From a virus (taxonomy: Duplodnaviria > Heunggongvirae > Uroviricota > Caudoviricetes), in the IMG/VR virus record IMGVR_UViG_2740892429_000003: 42,039 nt of DNA, one strand, 5' to 3'. A program made the position numbers and the translations under genes. This document shows, one piece after another, positions 1,272-36,461 of the stretch. Under the pieces are notes generated by a model. It was given only the letters and a program-made list of their open reading frames with translations, searched no databases and was not told the DNA's origin. Each line of letters opens with the position of its first letter. Within the stretch, counting starts at the first letter, position 1.

Positions 1272-1817
1272 ATGAATATTAGTGAACTTAAAAACTGTAT
1301 ACACTATGAAGTAATAGGTTATAAACGCCCTTTCTCCTGGCGAAAAGCAATTGTTCGCGCAATAAAACACAGAAGATTACGTTATTTATTTTGGTGGCGC
1401 ATAGCCAAATACCTTTTTGATAAAGGCGGATACTGTCGGAAGATTGCGAAAAAAATAGAACGTTTCATTCTTGATAAATATAATGTAACCGTTCCCTTAA
1501 CTGTAAATATTGGTAAAGGGTTCGACATATCTTATCTCAATGGCGTTGTTATCGGTCACAAAGTTACAATAGGTGAAAATTGTTCAATTAAGCCTGGAGT
1601 AACTATTGGACTTCGCGGTGAATTTAATGATATGGATATTGTCATAGGAAATAATGTAACCATTGGCTGTAACGCCACCATCCTTGGTGGCAAAGTGCAT
1701 ATAGGGAATAATGTAAAAATAGGAGCTCATGCATTGGTACTGCATGACATTCCTGATGACTCCACATTCATTACTAAATTTCACTCTGAAATTATTTATA
1801 ACTCATCTCACACATAA
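1272..1817 (+). CDS. Hexapeptide-repeat O-acetyltransferase (WcaB/CysE-like left-handed beta-helix)
   Basis: 181 aa with tandem hexapeptide repeats (VVIGHKVTIGENCSIKPGVTIG...IVIGNNVTIGCNATILGGKVHIGNNVKIGAHALV); very low GC; opposite orientation to flanking tail genes. Confidence 0.75.
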   Translation: MNISELKNCIHYEVIGYKRPFSWRKAIVRAIKHRRLRYLFWWRIAKYLFDKGGYCRKIAKKIERFILDKYNVTVPLTVNIGKGFDISYLNGVVIGHKVTIGENCSIKPGVTIGLRGEFNDMDIVIGNNVTIGCNATILGGKVHIGNNVKIGAHALVLHDIPDDSTFITKFHSEIIYNSSHT

Positions 1818-1827
1818 TTCCGTTTAA

Positions 1828-2400
1828 TCACAGCTCTGGCCATACGATATCCGGGGCTGTATTTATATCAATCCGACTCACTAATACCCGGTATTTTTTC
1901 CAGGAAGATAGCATCGATACTTCCTCATCAGTTGCCATTTCAAAATTAACAGCATCCTGCAGAATTGTTATGTTATCAGTCGCTTCCTGGATTAATCTTG
2001 CCTTTTTCTCTTCCGCCTCCCGGATCCGGAACAGTTTTTCTCCTTCTGCATCTTTCACCCAGGCTGTGCCGTTCCACTTCTGAAACTCCCCATCCGGCGA
2101 CAACCAGGTGACGTTTTCCGGTAACGGACCGAGTTCAGAAATAAATAATGCGTCCCCTGATGCCACGTCATAAACCGTTTTACCCCGATGATCTTCAACG
2201 AGATGCCACGATGACTCATCACTGTTGAAAACAGCCACGAAGCCAGCCGGAATATCTGGCGGTGCAATATAGGTACTGTTTGCAGGCAGACCTGTATGAG
2301 GTGGAATATATGCATCACCTTCACCAATAAATTCATTAGTTCCGGACAGCAGATTATAAATTTTTATGGTCCGTGATTGTTCACTCATTCTGAATGCCAT
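1828..2400 (-). CDS. Tail fiber assembly protein (Tfa, Mu U / P2 G-like)
   Basis: 190 aa; immediately downstream of tail fiber gene with overlapping stop/start; typical Tfa N-terminal sequence ([35 protein letters not shown]). Confidence 0.8.
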
Positions 2401-3515
2401 TATGCAAGCCTCACAATATAGTTAAATGCGATGTTTTTGACGGTGTTTTCCGCGTTACCAGCAGCGTTAACGGTGATGGTGTGTCCATGTGAACCAATCG
2501 CAACAGAGTGCGTATGTGCACCAATAGCGACAGTATGTGTATGCGCCCCAGCACTTGCTGCAGTACCTGATACTGAGTGGGTATGCGCGCCAGCAGAATT
2601 CGTTGCACCTAAGTGAGTTTGAGCAGAGTTCGACGAAGCTACTCTACCGGAGCTAACGTTAGCATTATCCCCCTGAGATATCGGATGCGTATGTGCACCT
2701 GCTGAAGCTGCTGTTCCGCTAACGCTATGGGTATGCGCACCAGTGTTATTCGTAGATTTAGTTCCATAATCAAACGATGATGTGTTTTTTGTCCCTAAAT
2801 CTGTATTTGAAGCACTGGCGCTGTGGGTGTGCGATTTAATGCCGTCTTGTTCCTGGCTAAGAACATCACGTCCACTTGCAGGCTTACCTTTGATTGTCCA
2901 GCCACGCATATCAGGGATCACGCCTGACGGATAAGCGGCTGCAAGTTTCGGGTATGCAGACTTATCAAAAGTCTGTCCCTGCATCAGAGCATAACCAGAT
3001 GGAACTGTATCTGATGGCCACGGGATCGGGGCACCTACAGGAAAGGTCGAATTATTTTCCAAACCAAGATATTTAAGGACATCAGCAACAGAGCTTTTTG
3101 CCAAAATATCTCGCCCAACCTGTGTCAGGTCAGCCAAATTAGCGGTATCTTGATTGGTAAAATACGGTAATTTGTTTTCGGATGCTGAAAGATTAGCAAG
3201 TGCGGTAAGTATGGCATTAATTCTCTGATAGTTCTTATCTAATGCAGACGACATTTTTGCGATAAAGCCGGCCTGATCGCCATCGTCCTGTACATCCAGT
3301 CCACTTTCATTTGCTGTATATTGTGCCATTGCAGATGCAATAAAGCTGGCCTGCCGAATAACCTTATTGACTTGCGCACTGGATGCTTTCCCTGCTGTAA
3401 ATCCGGATAAAAGCGCAGGCAACGCTTCCCATTCCTCCTGCGACATAACATTGGCATTTTTACCCGTTGCGAATGCTTTAAAGTCATTTTTTGCCATCAG
3501 AGTAATACTCCCCAT
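2400..3515 (-). CDS. Tail fiber protein with C-terminal His-X-His repeat tip
   Basis: 371 aa; C-terminus with repeated [19 protein letters not shown] units and terminal [12 protein letters not shown]; position after baseplate genes. Confidence 0.75.
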
Positions 3516-6535: not shown

Positions 6536-7108
6536 TTATTTAGGTTTCTTCCTACCATAAACAAACACTGTAGTTAATCCTACGAGATCTAAAGTAGCAA
6601 GAGTACCTGCGAACCAAGTGTTACCGCGATTAGCAAAAAACGCAGCCATTATAAGCACTACCATTGCAATGCAAAATCCCATCCATTGCCCACGTTTGTC
6701 GCGTGAAACCGCACCAAGTAATGCATCACTTTGCGTCTTATGCCTATGCTCTTGCTCTTTTTCGGTTAGCCTGAAAATTCTCTCAGCGCCGCCGGGTAAT
6801 ATTTGATTATATTGTAAGAGCATAGCAGGAGGTGGGAGTGGTCCCTGAAAAGACTCCTGCTGAAACATGGCAATAACCTTCGGGTTCTTAGAAACTCTCT
6901 CAAGAAGTTCAGGTGTTAACTTCGATTTTAGCTCAGGATCAAGGTTGGCAACTGCAGACAGCTTTTCCACTACTTCCTGAGACTCATCATATTCCGAGGA
7001 ATCAATATCTTCGTCGATACCATCCGAATCAGGAACGGCTTTTTGCGACGCTTTGTTTTCCTGATGCTTTTTGAGAACGGCCGCCTGCTTGCGGGGTTTT
7101 GAACTCAT
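6536..7108 (-). CDS. Cargo gene: inner-membrane protein with acidic N-terminal region and two C-terminal TM helices
   Basis: 190 aa; D/E/S-rich N-terminal half, C-terminal GFCIAMVVLIMAAFFA and LATLDLVGLTTVFVYG; lower GC than tail genes; start may lie further downstream. Confidence 0.45.
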   Translation of the reverse strand: MSSKPRKQAAVLKKHQENKASQKAVPDSDGIDEDIDSSEYDESQEVVEKLSAVANLDPELKSKLTPELLERVSKNPKVIAMFQQESFQGPLPPPAMLLQYNQILPGGAERIFRLTEKEQEHRHKTQSDALLGAVSRDKRGQWMGFCIAMVVLIMAAFFANRGNTWFAGTLATLDLVGLTTVFVYGRKKPK

Positions 7109-9156: not shown

Positions 9157-9743
9157 TAGCCGCCTCCCAGTAATGACGCCACGTTACCCGTAATGCTTTT
9201 CAGCAGTGAAGTATCTGGAGGCTTTGTGGTTTTGTTGCCGCTGTTCTGTACCGCCGACGTGCTGGCCCCTTCCTTCATGTTGGTTTTATCCGCGACGGTA
9301 ATCTGCTGTGTCCGGGAGATAAGGACCTCCCTCAGGGTAAGGACGGCGGACAGGACGTTTTCGGTTGTCTTGTCCGTCGTCACTTCCAGCGCCCGGATCA
9401 ACATGTTGCTGTACAGCCGTTTACCGGTTACCACATCGAAGGGGATACGGCTTTCCTGCAGATCCAGTAGCTCCTGATACGTCTGCTGAGGACTCAGGCC
9501 GAGCAGGCTGGTAGCCGTCAGGTTACTGGCAAAATCCAGCAATGTGCCGCCACCGGCGAAACCAACCTCCATCACCACTTCTGACGGTTTTTTATAGGCA
9601 TGATCAGCGACAGCAGCCCCGACCTCTACCGGATGCTCGGTTATTTCAAGCATATCTGTATGCTTCTCTGAAATAACAACACTGGGAACAATCATTCCTA
9701 TTTTTCTGCTCTGCTGATGAAAAAGTGTAGAGAGAATATCCAC
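9156..9743 (-). CDS. Tail-associated protein
   Basis: 195 aa; directly downstream of tape measure gene. Confidence 0.4.
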   Translation of the reverse strand: MDILSTLFHQQSRKIGMIVPSVVISEKHTDMLEITEHPVEVGAAVADHAYKKPSEVVMEVGFAGGGTLLDFASNLTATSLLGLSPQQTYQELLDLQESRIPFDVVTGKRLYSNMLIRALEVTTDKTTENVLSAVLTLREVLISRTQQITVADKTNMKEGASTSAVQNSGNKTTKPPDTSLLKSITGNVASLLGGG

Positions 9744-11752
9744 TAACCCACCCTCACCTGATTACTTCGCATGACCTGAGCATTTGCAGACTGTTGCCGA
9801 CGTGCAACCTCATTACCGACAGCGTGCGGATCTCCGCCACCGTAAATGTGGTAGGTATTTTGCTGGTTAACCTCTGTCACTTTGCCACTAATTCCCGCCA
9901 CGGCAGCCTTATTAATCAGCTCTCGAGAATAGATATTTCTTCCATTTTCATGCTGGATAATGCTGCTCATCAATGCTGACATGGTTTTCGGATCGCTCAT
10001 ATTCAGGGCAGCCCGGGGATCCACTCCCAGTCGTTGCGATACAGCCCTGATATACGCAGTTGTGTTGTTATTATCAGAGGCAGGTGCCCAGGTAGAGATA
10101 ATTTTTTCCACACTGTTTATTCCTCGCCCGGCGTACAACATTAACTGACGAGCAAGAGCCCGTAATCCATCAAAGGCAGTTTCAAATCTGGCAAATCGCC
10201 CGCCCGGGTGTTCAAGAGAAGCCCCCGCCTGACCAGCAAAATTAAGGTTTCCCGGATTGTTATTCCGCTCTCCTCGTTTCGTAGCCTGTGTATGTTGTTC
10301 CGGCTCATCATCACCAAACCAGCCGCGTACCGTCCGGCCCACACTGCGGGGATCGAATCCCCAGTGCTCTTTAATCCAGTCGGCAGTACTGTTAGCGCTG
10401 TCTGTAACCATCGGCATCGCTGACGGATTTTCGCTGCCCTGATTAAGTATCTGTTTGCCGATGCTGACGGCATCAGCCCAGCGTCCATCTTTGATAGCGT
10501 TGAGCAGGTCGGCGATCATGTTCAGCATTTTGCTGAATTCGCCCATCTGGTCGATGAAGTTGCTGAAATCCCACTTCAGGGACCATGATTTGGGGTCAAT
10601 ATTGAGTAGTTTCGCCAGCGCTTTCGCCAGATCGTTAACGGTCGTTTTAAGGTCACGAACCATCTTCAGCGCGGCATCGACCTCCGGTTTCCACTTGCCC
10701 CAGTCAATCAGGCTGTCGCCGCCTTCCTTCCAGGTCTGATAGTCCTCCCACAGGAGGGCAATCCCCGCCGCCAGCGCGGTAATGAGGCCAACCGGCGACA
10801 TCCAGAACGTACTGTTCAGAATGCGCAGCGCAATCGTCAGTGCGCCAAACAGCGAGATCAACTCCCGCGTTTGCTTATCCAGCGATTGCCACCAGGTGAT
10901 AAGGCCTGATGTCCCCTCAATCAGTCTGAAGAACAGCCGCCCGATAATATCCCCGAGCGCCAGAATGCCTTTTATGGCTTTCGTCAGGGTCTGCTCGATA
11001 CGAGGGAAGTTGTCCAGGATATGGCGGCGCAGGGTGTCCAGCGAACCTGCAAGCCCACCCGCAAGATTAGAGCCGATTTTGTCACGGGCCATGCCTGCCA
11101 TCGCGCTAAACTCACGCAGAGAGGTCATAAATTTGTTGGAGCTTCTGGCCGCCTCGTCAGCATTGAAGCCGATAGCTTTCGCCATTGCGCTGTACTGCCC
11201 GGAGAAGCCACCTACACCCCGGCGCATCGCCATAAGGGTATTTTCGTCAATGCCCAGCATCTGCGCATACTGGTTAGCCCGGTAATACGGCATGCTGCTG
11301 AGTTTCTGTCCAACGCCCGTAAAGATAGCGGCCATGTCACGCATGTTACCGCTGGCATCACGGGTCTGTACGCCCAGGCGATTCAGAAATCCCTCCGCCC
11401 CGGGATTATTACGAATAAACCGGGAGAGTTTTTCCAGAGAAGATCGCGCAGCGTCCACGCTGCCGCCAACCTGCGAAACCGCATAGCCAATAGACTGAAT
11501 TCCCTGGACTGTCGCGCCGGTGCGCTGTGACGCCCAGTAAAGATTATCCAGACCAGAGGCGATCCTAGCCGTGAAGGCCACCACGGACAGCGCCGCTCCT
11601 TCGACGGCCAGCCCCATTTTGATGACATTTGCAGTTGTACCGGCGAGGACAGAACCGAATTTTTTCGCTCCTGCATCATCCACACTGAAGCCAAGCGAGA
11701 CGAGGAAATCTTTAATAGTCTCGGCGTTCATTATCCTCTCTCCATTTCTCAA
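9743..11752 (-). CDS. Tail tape measure protein
   Basis: 669 aa; alanine/glycine-rich helical protein downstream of sheath/tube/chaperone; start may be the internal MNAETIK (11731). Confidence 0.8.
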   Translation of the reverse strand: MRNGERIMNAETIKDFLVSLGFSVDDAGAKKFGSVLAGTTANVIKMGLAVEGAALSVVAFTARIASGLDNLYWASQRTGATVQGIQSIGYAVSQVGGSVDAARSSLEKLSRFIRNNPGAEGFLNRLGVQTRDASGNMRDMAAIFTGVGQKLSSMPYYRANQYAQMLGIDENTLMAMRRGVGGFSGQYSAMAKAIGFNADEAARSSNKFMTSLREFSAMAGMARDKIGSNLAGGLAGSLDTLRRHILDNFPRIEQTLTKAIKGILALGDIIGRLFFRLIEGTSGLITWWQSLDKQTRELISLFGALTIALRILNSTFWMSPVGLITALAAGIALLWEDYQTWKEGGDSLIDWGKWKPEVDAALKMVRDLKTTVNDLAKALAKLLNIDPKSWSLKWDFSNFIDQMGEFSKMLNMIADLLNAIKDGRWADAVSIGKQILNQGSENPSAMPMVTDSANSTADWIKEHWGFDPRSVGRTVRGWFGDDEPEQHTQATKRGERNNNPGNLNFAGQAGASLEHPGGRFARFETAFDGLRALARQLMLYAGRGINSVEKIISTWAPASDNNNTTAYIRAVSQRLGVDPRAALNMSDPKTMSALMSSIIQHENGRNIYSRELINKAAVAGISGKVTEVNQQNTYHIYGGGDPHAVGNEVARRQQSANAQVMRSNQVRVG

Positions 11753-11908
11753 TGCGCCGCTGGTTATCCGCTTTTACCGCCAGATGGTCATTCAAGAGAG
11801 CAATGTCGTACAAATCGACAGAGCCATCTTTAAGTGCTGTATAAGGAATTAACCCGGCATCAATCGGATTGAGAAGGTAGGACAGCCCGTCCGGCAGGCT
11901 GTTAAACG

Positions 11909-12361
11909 TCAGTCCTGTTGCAGGCTCTGCGTCGTGCTGGTAAGGGATGTAGGCAAAAAATTTCCCAGCGAATCGGCGACCACCCGCGCCACCATCTGCA
12001 GCATGACCAGCAGGTCAATATCATCAAACATCAGTTCGCCCTGGGTAAATACCGGCACCCATCCGTCCATATGACGCCGCGACACCACCGCAAGACAGGG
12101 ATGAATAATCGCATCGGTGTCATCTTCGGTCAGGGAAGACAGTTCCTCAGCGATACGCGGGAGCATGGTTTCAAACACCGGTTTTAACTGCTCGAATTTC
12201 ACGGTGTCGATTTTGCCATCAGCAGGCAAACGGGAGCGAATGCTCCCGAAATCTGACATCATTCCCGCCAGTACCGGCAGAAGTTTGCGGGTCACTTTCA
12301 GCTGGTCAAAAACGCTGAGTTTTGCCGTGCGATATTTTACACCTTTGATTTCGAATTCCAT
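11909..12361 (-). CDS. Tail assembly chaperone, with -1 frameshift extension to about 11712
   Basis: 150 aa between tube and tape measure; slippery T_TTT_TTG in register near 3' end opens an 80-codon -1 frame across the gap. Confidence 0.6.
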   Translation of the reverse strand: MEFEIKGVKYRTAKLSVFDQLKVTRKLLPVLAGMMSDFGSIRSRLPADGKIDTVKFEQLKPVFETMLPRIAEELSSLTEDDTDAIIHPCLAVVSRRHMDGWVPVFTQGELMFDDIDLLVMLQMVARVVADSLGNFLPTSLTSTTQSLQQD

Positions 12362-32370: not shown

Positions 32371-33873
32371 GTGTCAACTTTGAGAATCGGTATGGAAATC
32401 CAAGAGTTTGTAAGTCACTATAAAAACCACCCTGTTCTATTCATTGGAACAGGATTTAGCCTACGGTATCTAGAAAACTCATTTAGCTGGGATGGTCTTC
32501 TTTTGAGTGTCGCAATGGAACTAACCGGTAATGCTGAGTTTTACTACGATTTGAAAGCTGAAAGCCTAGAAGGTGACGACTATCGATATGATATCTTAGC
32601 TACAAAACTTGAAGATATTTTTAATAAAAAGCTGGCAGAAGATCGTAACGGTAAGTTCAAAGACATCAATGATGTTTTCTATGAGCACATGAAAAAAGGG
32701 AAAAAACTAAGTCGATTCAAAATTTATTTAACTTCAATACTTAAAGACCTAAAGATAAAAGAGTCAATGATGGAGGAAATAAACAGCTTAATAAAAACAA
32801 GAAAAAACATAGGCTCCATCATTACAACAAACTACGACCAACTCGTAGAGAACATCTTCGAATTTAACCCACTGATTGGTAACAACATTCTTTTAAGTAA
32901 CCCATACGGTTCAGTTTACAAAATACATGGCTGTGTTAGTGATCCTAACAACATAATTATCACAGGTGAAGACTACGCAAACTTCGACAATAAATATGAG
33001 TTAATTCGCGCTCAATTACTCTCAATATTCATACACAACCCTATCATATTTATAGGGTATAGTATTAGCGATAAAAACATTAAGTACTTATTAAAAACCA
33101 TATTCTCATACGTTGACTTAAATACCGAACTTGCAAAAAGGATAAAAGATAATTTTCTTTTGGTTGAATACGAAAAAGACAGCATGTCAACTGAAATTAC
33201 GGAGCATGACATAGATATAGAAGGCATGTCTATCATAAGAATAAACAAAATAAAAACAAACAATTACAAAGCTGTATATGATGCCATCTCGGGACTAGTT
33301 TTGCCAGTATCCGCAATGGACATAAGAAAGGTTCAAAAAGTTTGGAGTACCATCAAAAGTGGTGGTGAGATAAAGGTTAAAATTACAGAAAATTTAGATG
33401 AACTTCGCAATGATGAAATGGTCATTGCTGTTGGTTCAGAAAGAACCGTACAATATGTTTATCAAACAAAATCTGAAATGATACAGAACTATTTTAAAAT
33501 AGTTGACGAAGCAAACTCTCAGCTTATCGCATTACTGAATAAGCAAACTATAGCTAATAGCGAACACTTTCCAATATACGCTTTTAGTTCTATCTGCCCT
33601 GAACTAGAAAATACCGAGACATACAGAAAACGGCAGCTAGATAAAATCATTGGTAACCTTTCTCGAATTAAAACATGTAAGAGTGATGCTGTGTCTATTG
33701 ATGAAATACTAAAAGAAACGAAAGAGTATAAAGTTGCTAACACGATTATGTATTGCGTACTAAACGATACTATTTCATTGAAACAACTACGAGATTATTT
33801 AACAAAACCAGGGCATAAAATTGATACCCAATACAGGCGACTTTTATGCTTGTATGATTATTTATCATATTAA
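32371..33873 (+). CDS. SIR2-family (SIR2_2 / ThsA-like NADase motif) protein with uncharacterised C-terminal domain; candidate single-gene defence cargo
   Basis: 500 aa; GTG start with GAGG SD; motifs GTGFS (26-30), TTNYD (152-156), KIHG (184-187), FIGYS (227-231); very low GC; flanked by hairpins 32295..32315 and 33899..33921. Confidence 0.8.
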   Translation: MSTLRIGMEIQEFVSHYKNHPVLFIGTGFSLRYLENSFSWDGLLLSVAMELTGNAEFYYDLKAESLEGDDYRYDILATKLEDIFNKKLAEDRNGKFKDINDVFYEHMKKGKKLSRFKIYLTSILKDLKIKESMMEEINSLIKTRKNIGSIITTNYDQLVENIFEFNPLIGNNILLSNPYGSVYKIHGCVSDPNNIIITGEDYANFDNKYELIRAQLLSIFIHNPIIFIGYSISDKNIKYLLKTIFSYVDLNTELAKRIKDNFLLVEYEKDSMSTEITEHDIDIEGMSIIRINKIKTNNYKAVYDAISGLVLPVSAMDIRKVQKVWSTIKSGGEIKVKITENLDELRNDEMVIAVGSERTVQYVYQTKSEMIQNYFKIVDEANSQLIALLNKQTIANSEHFPIYAFSSICPELENTETYRKRQLDKIIGNLSRIKTCKSDAVSIDEILKETKEYKVANTIMYCVLNDTISLKQLRDYLTKPGHKIDTQYRRLLCLYDYLSY

Positions 33874-36030: not shown

Positions 36031-36234
36031 ATGACTGTAATCAAAACGCATACCGGAACGGTTATTACGCGCACCGGTGAAAAGCAGGTGCAATTGCATC
36101 AAAACGCGACAACGTGGGTGGCTGGCCCAAAAGAGTATTACTACAAAGACACTGGCCGCCGCGGTGGTGCTGTCGGTGTCCGCACTCGTCTGGTGCTGAG
36201 CAGCATCCGCCCAATCGAAGCAAAGCAGGAGTAA
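36031..36234 (+). CDS. Small hypothetical protein
   Basis: 67 aa directly after polymerase gene. Confidence 0.4.
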   Translation: MTVIKTHTGTVITRTGEKQVQLHQNATTWVAGPKEYYYKDTGRRGGAVGVRTRLVLSSIRPIEAKQE

Positions 36235-36239
36235 CCCCT

Positions 36240-36461
36240 ATGTCATTTAAATATCGGGACAGTCCGCTTTATTACCGGGCTGCGAGGGAGGCCTTGCGCC
36301 TTGAGCAGTCCGGCGAATATGACCGGGCAGCGAAGGTCTGGGCCAAGGCTAACCGCCAGTCACGTAACGAACTGAATCAGGACTGGAGCGAACGCCGGTC
36401 TGATTTTTGTCTGATGCAGAACATGCGCGAAAAGCGTAAGGCGGTGAGCGATGACTTGTGA
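36240..36461 (+). CDS. Small hypothetical protein
   Basis: 73 aa (MSFKYRDSPLYYRAAREALR...), AGGAG SD 8 nt upstream of ATG. Confidence 0.4.
   Translation: MSFKYRDSPLYYRAAREALRLEQSGEYDRAAKVWAKANRQSRNELNQDWSERRSDFCLMQNMREKRKAVSDDL

Follow-up and report, generated by a model that had tools for sequence, protein, structure and literature searches.

Frameshifted tail assembly chaperones of the G/GT type (Xu, Hendrix and Duda 2004, as cited in PMC5009743) are represented by gpG/gpGT in phage lambda and by gpE/gpE+E' in phage P2. In lambda, whose tail is non-contractile, the chaperone gene follows that of the major tail protein and precedes the tape-measure gene; the slippery heptamer G_GGA_AAG is of the efficient Lys-tRNA type, and the T extension (about 140 aa) ends inside the tape-measure gene, 8 nt into gene H. 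In the contractile-tailed P2, the gene for the 91-aa chaperone is flanked by FII (tube) and T (tape measure), with one heptamer only, annotated as a -1 site at GGT TTT TTG (T_TTT_TTG) a few codons before the stop, and an E' extension that lacks its own start, carries a short conserved C-terminal module of about 37-40 residues, and ends 8 nt inside the tape-measure gene. The P2 frameshift is experimentally supported (review PMC5009743), whereas the E. coli prophage site considered here is predicted from sequence. True homologues of both halves of the prophage chaperone occur in Klebsiella phage Mulock (CPT_Mulock_014/015) and Burkholderia phage Magia (CPT_Magia_015/016), the extension being 62% and 41% identical, respectively (tblastn). 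Their GenBank records hold a curated joined CDS, a 'tape measure chaperone' plus a 'frameshift product'; this annotation is bioinformatic only, and the word 'frameshift' is absent from the Mulock genome announcement.

The locus, analysed in a window of 42,039 nt (the whole stretch of DNA), is a complete SEN34-like, contractile-tailed prophage of E. coli, present in 315 of 5,426 complete E. coli genomes. Pfam and PHROG matches give the order sheath, tube, chaperone, tape measure (Table 1), so that the chaperone gene lies between tube and tape measure as in both reference systems, with 3 nt separating the end of the tail tube gene from the chaperone ATG. The chaperone is longer than that of P2 (150 against 91 aa), and its family also differs: Phage_TAC_15 (105 bits, E = 5.1e-30 over residues 6-138, a whole-protein score, for a gathering cutoff of 22 bits) followed by DUF6889, instead of Phage_TAC_7 and Phage_P2_GpE. 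RefSeq starts the tape-measure gene at ATG 11731, with GAGAGG just 5'; from this start, the -1 ORF overlaps the tape-measure gene by 20 nt and the gap between annotated genes is 177 bp, the gene-less gap of 156 bp given in the preliminary description holding with a start at TTG 11752.

Table 1. Features of the tail chaperone region, with positions counted in the window.
Feature	Position	Strand	Evidence or remark
Tail sheath gene, 381 aa	12817..13962	-	Pfam DUF3383/E217_gp31_N, E = 2.5e-101; phrog_205 tail sheath, E = 2e-135
Tail tube gene, 146 aa	12365..12805	-	Pfam PF11681 (KPP10_Orf10 / Phage_Tube_PhiTE), E = 1.4e-60
Tail assembly chaperone, 0-frame product, 150 aa (gpG / gpE equivalent)	11909..12361	-	Pfam PF21822 Phage_TAC_15
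Slippery run G_GGA_AAT_TTT_TTG, 13 nt, three overlapping in-register heptamers	11954..11966	-	read from sequence
Heptamer G_GGA_AAT	11966..11960	-	read from sequence
Heptamer A_AAT_TTT (tRNA-Phe on UUU in the A site)	11957..11963	-	favoured by comparative data
Heptamer T_TTT_TTG (choice of the preliminary description)	11954..11960	-	in register; identical to the annotated P2 E/E+E' site
-1 frame extension, 80 codons + TAA (chaperone to putative 216-aa fusion)	11712..11954	-	translation; coding signature in relatives; no start of its own
DUF6889 domain (extension residues 37-75), candidate T-domain equivalent	11730..11846	-	Pfam PF21829
RefSeq 'DUF6889 family protein' CDS, 57 aa	11712..11885	-	CTG start, no Shine-Dalgarno
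Tape measure protein gene, 662 aa from ATG 11731, C-terminal lytic transglycosylase	9743..11731	-	phrog_2276 tail length tape measure protein, E = 1e-281

The reading that we favour, with a probability of roughly 0.9, is that the chaperone gene undergoes programmed -1 ribosomal frameshifting of the G/GT type. A likeness to lambda G/GT and P2 E/E+E' had been proposed beforehand, and every sequence-level prediction of it that could be tested was borne out. The 0-frame around the site reads CTG GGA AAT TTT TTG CCT; with TTT at 11959..11957 and TTG at 11956..11954, T_TTT_TTG is correctly in register, with 14 sense codons between it and the chaperone stop (TGA 11911..11909). The preliminary description had singled out this heptamer: its position and register stand, but the run holds three overlapping heptamers, against one in P2. 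The second ORF overlaps the 3' end of the chaperone gene in the -1 frame, without initiation signals of its own, and the in-register heptamers lie within this overlap. From GCC (11954), the -1 frame yields exactly the 80 residues quoted earlier for a stop-free stretch of about 80 codons, and it ends, as had been foreseen, just inside the tape-measure start (TAA 11714..11712). As a control for chance, the 49 annotated genes of the window hold 33 in-register X_XXY_YYZ heptamers, after which the -1 frame stays open for a median of 6 codons; four of these 33 open past the stop of their own gene, three of them being the chaperone site (80-82 codons). A heptamer combined with so long an open -1 frame exceeds chance.

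This two-frame layout is conserved in divergent relatives: in each of about 30 loci (30-99% protein identity), a -1 ORF of some 77-82 codons begins at the slippery run. Across about 25 distinct relatives, the -1 frame contains zero stops, its entropy by codon position is 0.48/0.40/1.08, and the ratio of synonymous to non-synonymous codon differences is 4854:5039, versus 1022:9182 and 822:9383 in the other frames; where it overlaps the tail of the 0-frame, the -1 frame is again the constrained one. These substitution patterns indicate that the -1 frame is the coding frame and is under purifying selection. A stop in the -1 linker was found in a decayed relative from Arsenophonus. Nucleotide conservation upstream of the site was considered as a signal and set aside: 54 nt are invariant in four phages, and this is lost in farther loci except for the slippery codons. 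An in-frame fusion at 97% identity was likewise discarded; it comes from a single Logan assembly, one of 81 close relatives, with T7 for T6, and was taken to be a mutant or a homopolymer error rather than evidence for fusion.

Within the run, all 24 TTG-type relatives have the codons GGA AAT TTT TTG unchanged, Mulock having the identical run, whereas synonymous codons for Phe, Asp, Gly and Asn vary freely elsewhere in the chaperone gene. All relatives keep an in-register X_XXT_TTT, in the form of A_AAT_TTT, T_TTT_TTT, G_GGT_TTT or C_CCT_TTT (the last in Magia), and T_TTT_TT[G/T] is present in all but Magia and one other locus, L120. As every relative keeps X_XXT_TTT, A_AAT_TTT may be the operative site, instead of or beside T_TTT_TTG (3 nt downstream of it), and the comparative data support it at least as strongly.

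The translated -1 frame matches DUF6889 (PF21829) with E = 1.1e-20 and 73.5 bits, against a cutoff of 23.9, as well as phrog_4364, so that the extension has homologues, the lack of which had been named in advance among the grounds for rejecting the frameshift. In an AlphaFold model of the fusion, a helical C-terminal domain (pLDDT 86-92) follows a disordered linker (residues 138-155); searches of solved structures and NCBIfam gave no matches. Could the gap instead hold a small gene of its own, for a 57-aa DUF6889 protein initiated alone, at the RefSeq CTG (11885) or, in relatives, at an internal Met or Val? RefSeq has it this way, under the name 'DUF6889 family protein', for the majority of the 315 E. 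coli genomes with the locus; ORFs of 49-58 aa have also been called in three relatives, and phrog_4364 spans 54 positions. Yet the RefSeq start is a CTG without a Shine-Dalgarno sequence, no candidate start is conserved among relatives, and the starts that have been called differ in position between lineages. No ATG, GTG or TTG with a Shine-Dalgarno sequence was found ahead of the conserved region of the -1 frame, whose first ATG/GTG/TTG in the window is codon 47, within the DUF6889 domain. Protein conservation and third-position wobble set in with the slippery run, over 20 codons 5' of any called start (the RefSeq CDS lacks 23 codons that are conserved further upstream in that frame), and DUF6889 sits behind a TAC_15 domain in every natural single-ORF case examined. 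An independent gene is therefore highly improbable on these grounds, and the CTG-start CDS is judged to be a mis-annotation. A mechanism that would leave the fusion intact is transcriptional slippage, in which RNA polymerase adds one U on the T6 and a minority of +1-nt mRNAs are translated in frame. The site does contain a T6 homopolymer, which is T7 in several relatives, one assembly (L112) has T7 in its DNA, and an added U would yield the identical GNFF-AY junction. Efficient slippage by E. coli RNA polymerase, however, generally needs runs of about 8-9 or more. Moreover, L120 (GGG GGT TTT ACG) and Magia (GGC CCT TTT ATC) have only T4 and still keep an in-register X_XXT_TTT, which is the signature of tandem tRNA slippage and not of a need for a homopolymer, and GGA AAT just upstream shows no variation at the very positions that complete a heptamer; we regard slippage during transcription as very unlikely.

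It could also be argued that the layout is a fossil, i.e., that a 1-nt deletion once split an ancestral fused chaperone gene, whose downstream frame is now a decaying, unexpressed pseudogene remnant. Fused single-ORF relatives do exist, and four copies of the locus, the Arsenophonus one included, are clearly decayed; but some 30 lineages, with identity as low as 30%, retain the split layout with the same stop-free -1 frame; it is carried by functional phage isolates (SEN34, YP3, Mulock, Magia) and by at least 300 E. coli genomes, and the purifying selection on the -1 frame, with its zero stops, leaves this explanation with hardly any credibility. The fused relatives are seven distant single-ORF proteins combining TAC_15 and DUF6889 (29-34% identity), colinear and gap-free across the junction, where their codons are non-slippery (TTC CTG, TTC TTC). 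Five fused loci were examined, and in three of them a short TAC_15 gene stands separately, directly upstream; judging from gene content, such short-plus-long pairs give both chaperone forms without recoding, and they lend independent, if indirect, support to the idea that tail assembly needs both forms.

Published reporters give frameshifting rates for these heptamers. In E. coli constructs with the IS3 pseudoknot, AAAUUUU gives 11.4% frameshifting versus 0.77% for UUUUUUG (PMC4066793 Table S3), and without a stimulator the three heptamers of the run each give 0.07-0.12%, for a background of about 0.055%; the GGGAAAG of lambda gives 0.28% unstimulated and 43% with a pseudoknot (PMC4066793). 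None of the three heptamers, which are of the Asn/Phe/Leu kind and not, as in lambda, of the efficient Lys type, is by itself an efficient site in E. coli if no stimulator is present. Folded singly, the sequences on the 3' and 5' sides of the site do no better than shuffles (z = -0.99 and +0.34). For 14 diverse loci, RNAalifold finds no conserved stem (weak consensus energy of about -6 kcal/mol, for a mean single-sequence MFE of -35), and an Rfam search of the window found nothing. The lambda frameshift is not known to need a stimulatory structure, and none is evident at the prophage site either. A Shine-Dalgarno-like GGGUG, read from the letters upstream of the site, can only be mentioned as speculation: Arg/Gln-Val codons force these bases, which makes the motif inseparable from coding constraint.

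Under programmed ribosomal frameshifting, most ribosomes would read 12361..11909 and release the 150-aa chaperone, while a minority would slip back by 1 nt on G_GGA_AAU_UUU_UUG, most probably on A_AAU_UUU with P-site tRNA-Asn and A-site tRNA-Phe, a slip on U_UUU_UUG being possible too. The slipped ribosomes would go on for 80 codons to the TAA, producing a 216-aa fusion made of the chaperone domain, a flexible linker of about 20 residues and the helical DUF6889 domain. By analogy with lambda gpG/gpGT (PMC5009743), the shared N-terminal domain is expected to coat the tape-measure protein, and both chaperone products to be absent from the virion; the rare C-terminal domain, again by analogy with lambda, may recruit the tube protein or the baseplate hub, thus starting tail-tube polymerisation.

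The resemblance to the reference systems is one of arrangement. The extension (80 aa, against about 140 in lambda) has no sequence similarity to lambda gpGT. A deep homology between DUF6889 and P2 E', both of which end in ...WRE..., was also considered and rejected: the BLASTP alignment spans 9 residues at E = 0.32, and P2 E' scores against an HMM of the extension no better than 2,000 shuffles. No Pfam cross-match exists between the P2 gpE/E' families and this chaperone or its extension, even at E <= 10. The chaperone would work like P2 E/E+E', yet it lies outside the P2 gpE/E' family.

In the E. coli prophage, SEN34, YP3 and vB_EcoM phages, the frameshift annotation is missing. A literature search found no mention of DUF6889, no pairing of DUF3383 with 'frameshift', and nothing specific for SEN34 together with 'frameshift'; a text search for the heptamer returned unrelated papers only. 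A ribosomal-slippage CDS should replace the RefSeq CTG-start 'DUF6889 family protein'; in the prophage, the predicted 216-aa fusion is mis-called or absent.

The mechanism is already known from lambda G/GT and P2 E/E+E', and the homologues in Mulock and Magia are already annotated; the understanding of frameshifting or of tail assembly is unchanged by the finding. Tentatively, the Phage_TAC_15/DUF6889 family might nevertheless offer a natural three-way comparison of how the ratio of short to long chaperone is set: by a weak, stimulator-free composite run with an X_XXU_UUU core (tRNA-Phe in the A site), by tandem short and long paralogues in high-GC relatives, or, in others, by an apparently fused form only. 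If the three heptamers do act additively, at the percent level and without an RNA stimulator, the run would be unusual among the programmed frameshift sites of bacteria. For DUF6889 and phrog_4364, the locus provides a functional hypothesis, that of a frameshift-dependent C-terminal domain of Phage_TAC_15 chaperones, and if this is true, DUF6889 would fulfil the function of the T domain in these contractile-tailed phages.

The window is identical to positions 1357126..1399164 of E. coli 21KM1392 (NZ_CP151067), a complete prophage of the SEN34 group (genus Brunovirus) that runs from integrase through tail fibres and adjoins yfhL; its chaperone region is carried by 315 of 5,426 complete E. coli genomes, and shares 97.5% identity with the vB_EcoM-606R2 group, 83% with Yersinia phage YP3 and 74% with SEN34. 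Sheath and tube genes are followed by a 150-aa ORF, a gap, the gene of the tape-measure protein (phrog_2276, E = 1e-281) and baseplate genes, the ORF matching both Pfam Phage_TAC_15 (E = 5e-30) and phrog_1688, 'tail assembly chaperone' (E = 9e-65). The tail region further includes a DUF2335 gene (6536..7108, minus) placed inside the baseplate module, a serine acetyltransferase gene (1272..1817, plus) beyond the tail-fibre genes and on the opposite strand, and a tail-fibre gene (2400..3044, minus) that RefSeq marks partial (N-terminus missing), although a 371-aa ORF is open over 2400..3515. In the replication module, a SIR2-family protein gene (32392..33873, plus), flanked by the DNA polymerase gene on one side and the DUF2815/DUF2800 genes on the other, could be a prophage-borne defence gene.

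The chaperone frame (0-frame) reads ...GCC GAT TCG CTG GGA AAT TTT TTG CCT ACA... near its 3' end, with 14 sense codons between the TTG and TGA, and contains, in the correct register, the T_TTT_TTG heptamer at which the preliminary description had placed a programmed -1 frameshift. This is not the single slippery heptamer of that account, as three heptamers overlap in register within the run. The -1 frame, read from 11954, encodes 80 residues, exactly those quoted originally, up to TAA 11714..11712. It does end just inside the tape-measure gene, but the 156-bp gap that it was said to fill rests on a TTG start at 11752; with the RefSeq start, ATG 11731, the gap is 177 bp and the -1 ORF overlaps by 20 nt. 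Compared with most relatives (…NER), the window has three extra codons in this ORF (…NERRDY); the usual TGA, overlapping the tape-measure start region, is CGA in the window (11721..11723, minus).

Features of the chaperone region in the window and in related loci
Feature	Position	Strand	Remarks
Chaperone 0-frame ORF	12361..11909	minus	150 aa; Phage_TAC_15
G_GGA_AAT heptamer	11966..11960	minus	in register, read from sequence
A_AAT_TTT heptamer	11963..11957	minus	in register, read from sequence
T_TTT_TTG heptamer	11960..11954	minus	X_XXY_YYZ register; site first proposed
Sheath		minus	DUF3383/E217_gp31, phrog_205
Tube		minus	PF11681
Short + long gene pair, high-GC metagenomic relatives	L114 2489..3630; L124 2499..3630; L125 231..1285		no frameshift

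Homologues of the extension exist, as it matches Pfam DUF6889 (E = 1.1e-20, 73.5 bits vs a cutoff of 23.9) and phrog_4364. Loci were compared in phage and E. coli records (L001-L006), reference genomes (L007-L030, 40-86% identity), metagenomic contigs chosen for distant chaperones (L117-L120, 30-46% identity), and phages Mulock and Magia, and in every intact locus the -1 frame is open for about 75-82 codons, from the slippery run to at or just inside the tape-measure start. Among 25 distinct sequences, the entropy of this frame past the 0-frame stop is 0.48/0.40/1.08 by codon position, synonymous to non-synonymous codon differences number 4854:5039 (vs 1022:9182 and 822:9383 in the other frames), and there are no stops (vs 2-8 in the other frames): this is the pattern that purifying selection leaves on protein-coding sequence. 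Inside the overlap too, the variable position is the second of the 0-frame codons, so that the 14-residue tail of the chaperone drifts while the -1 frame is constrained. Decayed copies occur in symbiont or other genomes, with a stop in the -1 linker (L028, an Arsenophonus MAG), a deletion joining the extension to a downstream gene (L026), or disrupted chaperone ORFs (L013, L029).

Could the gap instead hold an independent small gene? RefSeq/PGAP has it so, calling a 57-aa 'DUF6889 family protein' (11885..11712, minus) here and in most prophage-bearing E. coli genomes under the match. However, its CTG start has no Shine-Dalgarno sequence ahead of it, the first ATG, GTG or TTG of the frame in the window is codon 47, within the DUF6889 domain, and among the candidate starts of relatives none is conserved, a lone GAGG in L023 being the only Shine-Dalgarno sequence. 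In distant relatives, gene callers report fragments of 49-58 aa whose starts, at Met or Val codons inside the frame, differ from one relative to another and are each preceded by more than 20 conserved codons. A separate gene is thus improbable and the RefSeq model looks wrong; the gap is left empty in the GenBank records of SEN34, YP3 and vB_EcoM-606R2, and both treatments miss the frameshift product. Marginally less improbable is transcriptional slippage on the T6 run, against which stand the frozen codons completing the heptamer, and an in-register heptamer with only four Ts in L120 and Magia. A fossil frameshift mutation is scarcely credible given the purifying selection on the -1 frame and its conservation in viable phages.

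As a control for chance, all 49 annotated genes of the window were scanned for in-register heptamers and an open -1 stretch: 33 heptamers were found, with a median of 6 open codons after them, and only four open past the stop of their own gene, three of these being at the chaperone site (80-82 codons). A C_CCA_AAA heptamer, of a shift-prone type in E. coli, lies in register at 36126..36132 (plus), in a 67-aa hypothetical gene (36031..36234) that stops 33 codons later. Its -1 frame continues without a stop into the following gene (36240..36461), which encodes an ANR-family regulator; this arrangement is probably due to chance, since the regulator gene has its own AGGAG Shine-Dalgarno sequence.

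Which heptamer slips? The codons GGA AAT TTT TTG are fixed in 24/24 relatives with TTG after TTT, Mulock included; other Phe positions of that alignment mix TTT with TTC (15:10 and 13:7), and codon choice also varies for Gly, Asp and Asn. What the whole family shares is an in-register X_XXT_TTT, with UUU in the A site. It takes the form A_AAT_TTT if TTG follows, T_TTT_TTT if TTT follows, with upstream codons then varying freely (GGT AGT, GGT AAT, GGC AAT, GCT AGT), G_GGT_TTT in L120 and C_CCT_TTT in Magia. This pattern, confounded by phylogeny, points to A_AAT_TTT as the probable operative heptamer of the window. In E. coli reporters with no stimulator, IS911 stimulators or the IS3 pseudoknot, frameshifting was 0.070%, 0.355% and 11.4% for AAAUUUU, 0.118%, 0.247% and 0.765% for UUUUUUG, and 0.069%, 0.112% and 1.05% for GGGAAAU (PMC4066793 Table S3), which agrees with A_AAT_TTT, but only with a stimulator present. 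T_TTT_TTG remains viable, as it is the sole heptamer available at the annotated P2 site (GGT TTT TTG) and P2-type frameshifting is reported to be 2- to 3-fold more efficient than that of lambda (PMC5009743). The two products differ by one residue (GNFF-AY or GNFL-AY). RNA folds of 94 nt downstream and 77 nt upstream of the site were no better than shuffles, alignment folding of 14 diverse loci (about -6 kcal/mol vs a single-sequence mean of -35 kcal/mol) revealed no stimulator, and an Rfam search of the window gave no match. The weakness of all three heptamers in unstimulated reporters is what chiefly speaks against a high shift rate, though not against frameshifting itself.

Among 1.84 billion representatives, a full HMMER scan recovered seven proteins (191-210 aa, 29-34% identity) aligning end-to-end with the predicted fusion, gapless at the junction (for example ...SLARFLAYEPIEF... 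vs ...SLGNFLAYIPYQH... in the window). Their DNA is truly in frame, with non-slippery junction codons (CGC TTC CTG GCC in L114, CCG TTC TTC TCC in L116) that could partly reflect high-GC codon bias. In three of five loci (L114, L124, L125), a separate short TAC_15 gene (159-167 aa) lies directly upstream of the long TAC_15+DUF6889 gene, and L116 and L123 have the long form only, within the stretch seen. The former lineages would thus make both forms from two genes, without recoding, which is independent evidence that DUF6889 acts as a C-terminal addition to the chaperone and that the short and the long form are both important. One of 81 close relatives (L112, Logan SRR23924998, gene 1501..2142) has T7 for T6, so that the extension is in frame with the chaperone (protein P0001, junction GNFF-AY), either through a homopolymer sequencing error or as a mutant making the long form only.

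Taken together, a frameshifted chaperone with a -1 extension is supported at the sequence level. The arrangement is functionally that of lambda G/GT and P2 E/E+E', and no sequence relationship to the lambda or P2 chaperones was found; true homologues of the chaperone are found in Klebsiella phage Mulock and Burkholderia phage Magia, whose GenBank records join the two frames, bioinformatically, as 'tape measure chaperone frameshift product'. Frameshifting goes unmentioned in the Mulock genome announcement, as does DUF6889 in the literature library searched. The arrangement belongs to a well-known class and is unremarkable within it, though unannotated or mis-annotated, and the additions are modest: a functional hypothesis is now available for DUF6889, the likely operative heptamer is refined, and the frameshift is replaced by a gene pair in related lineages.
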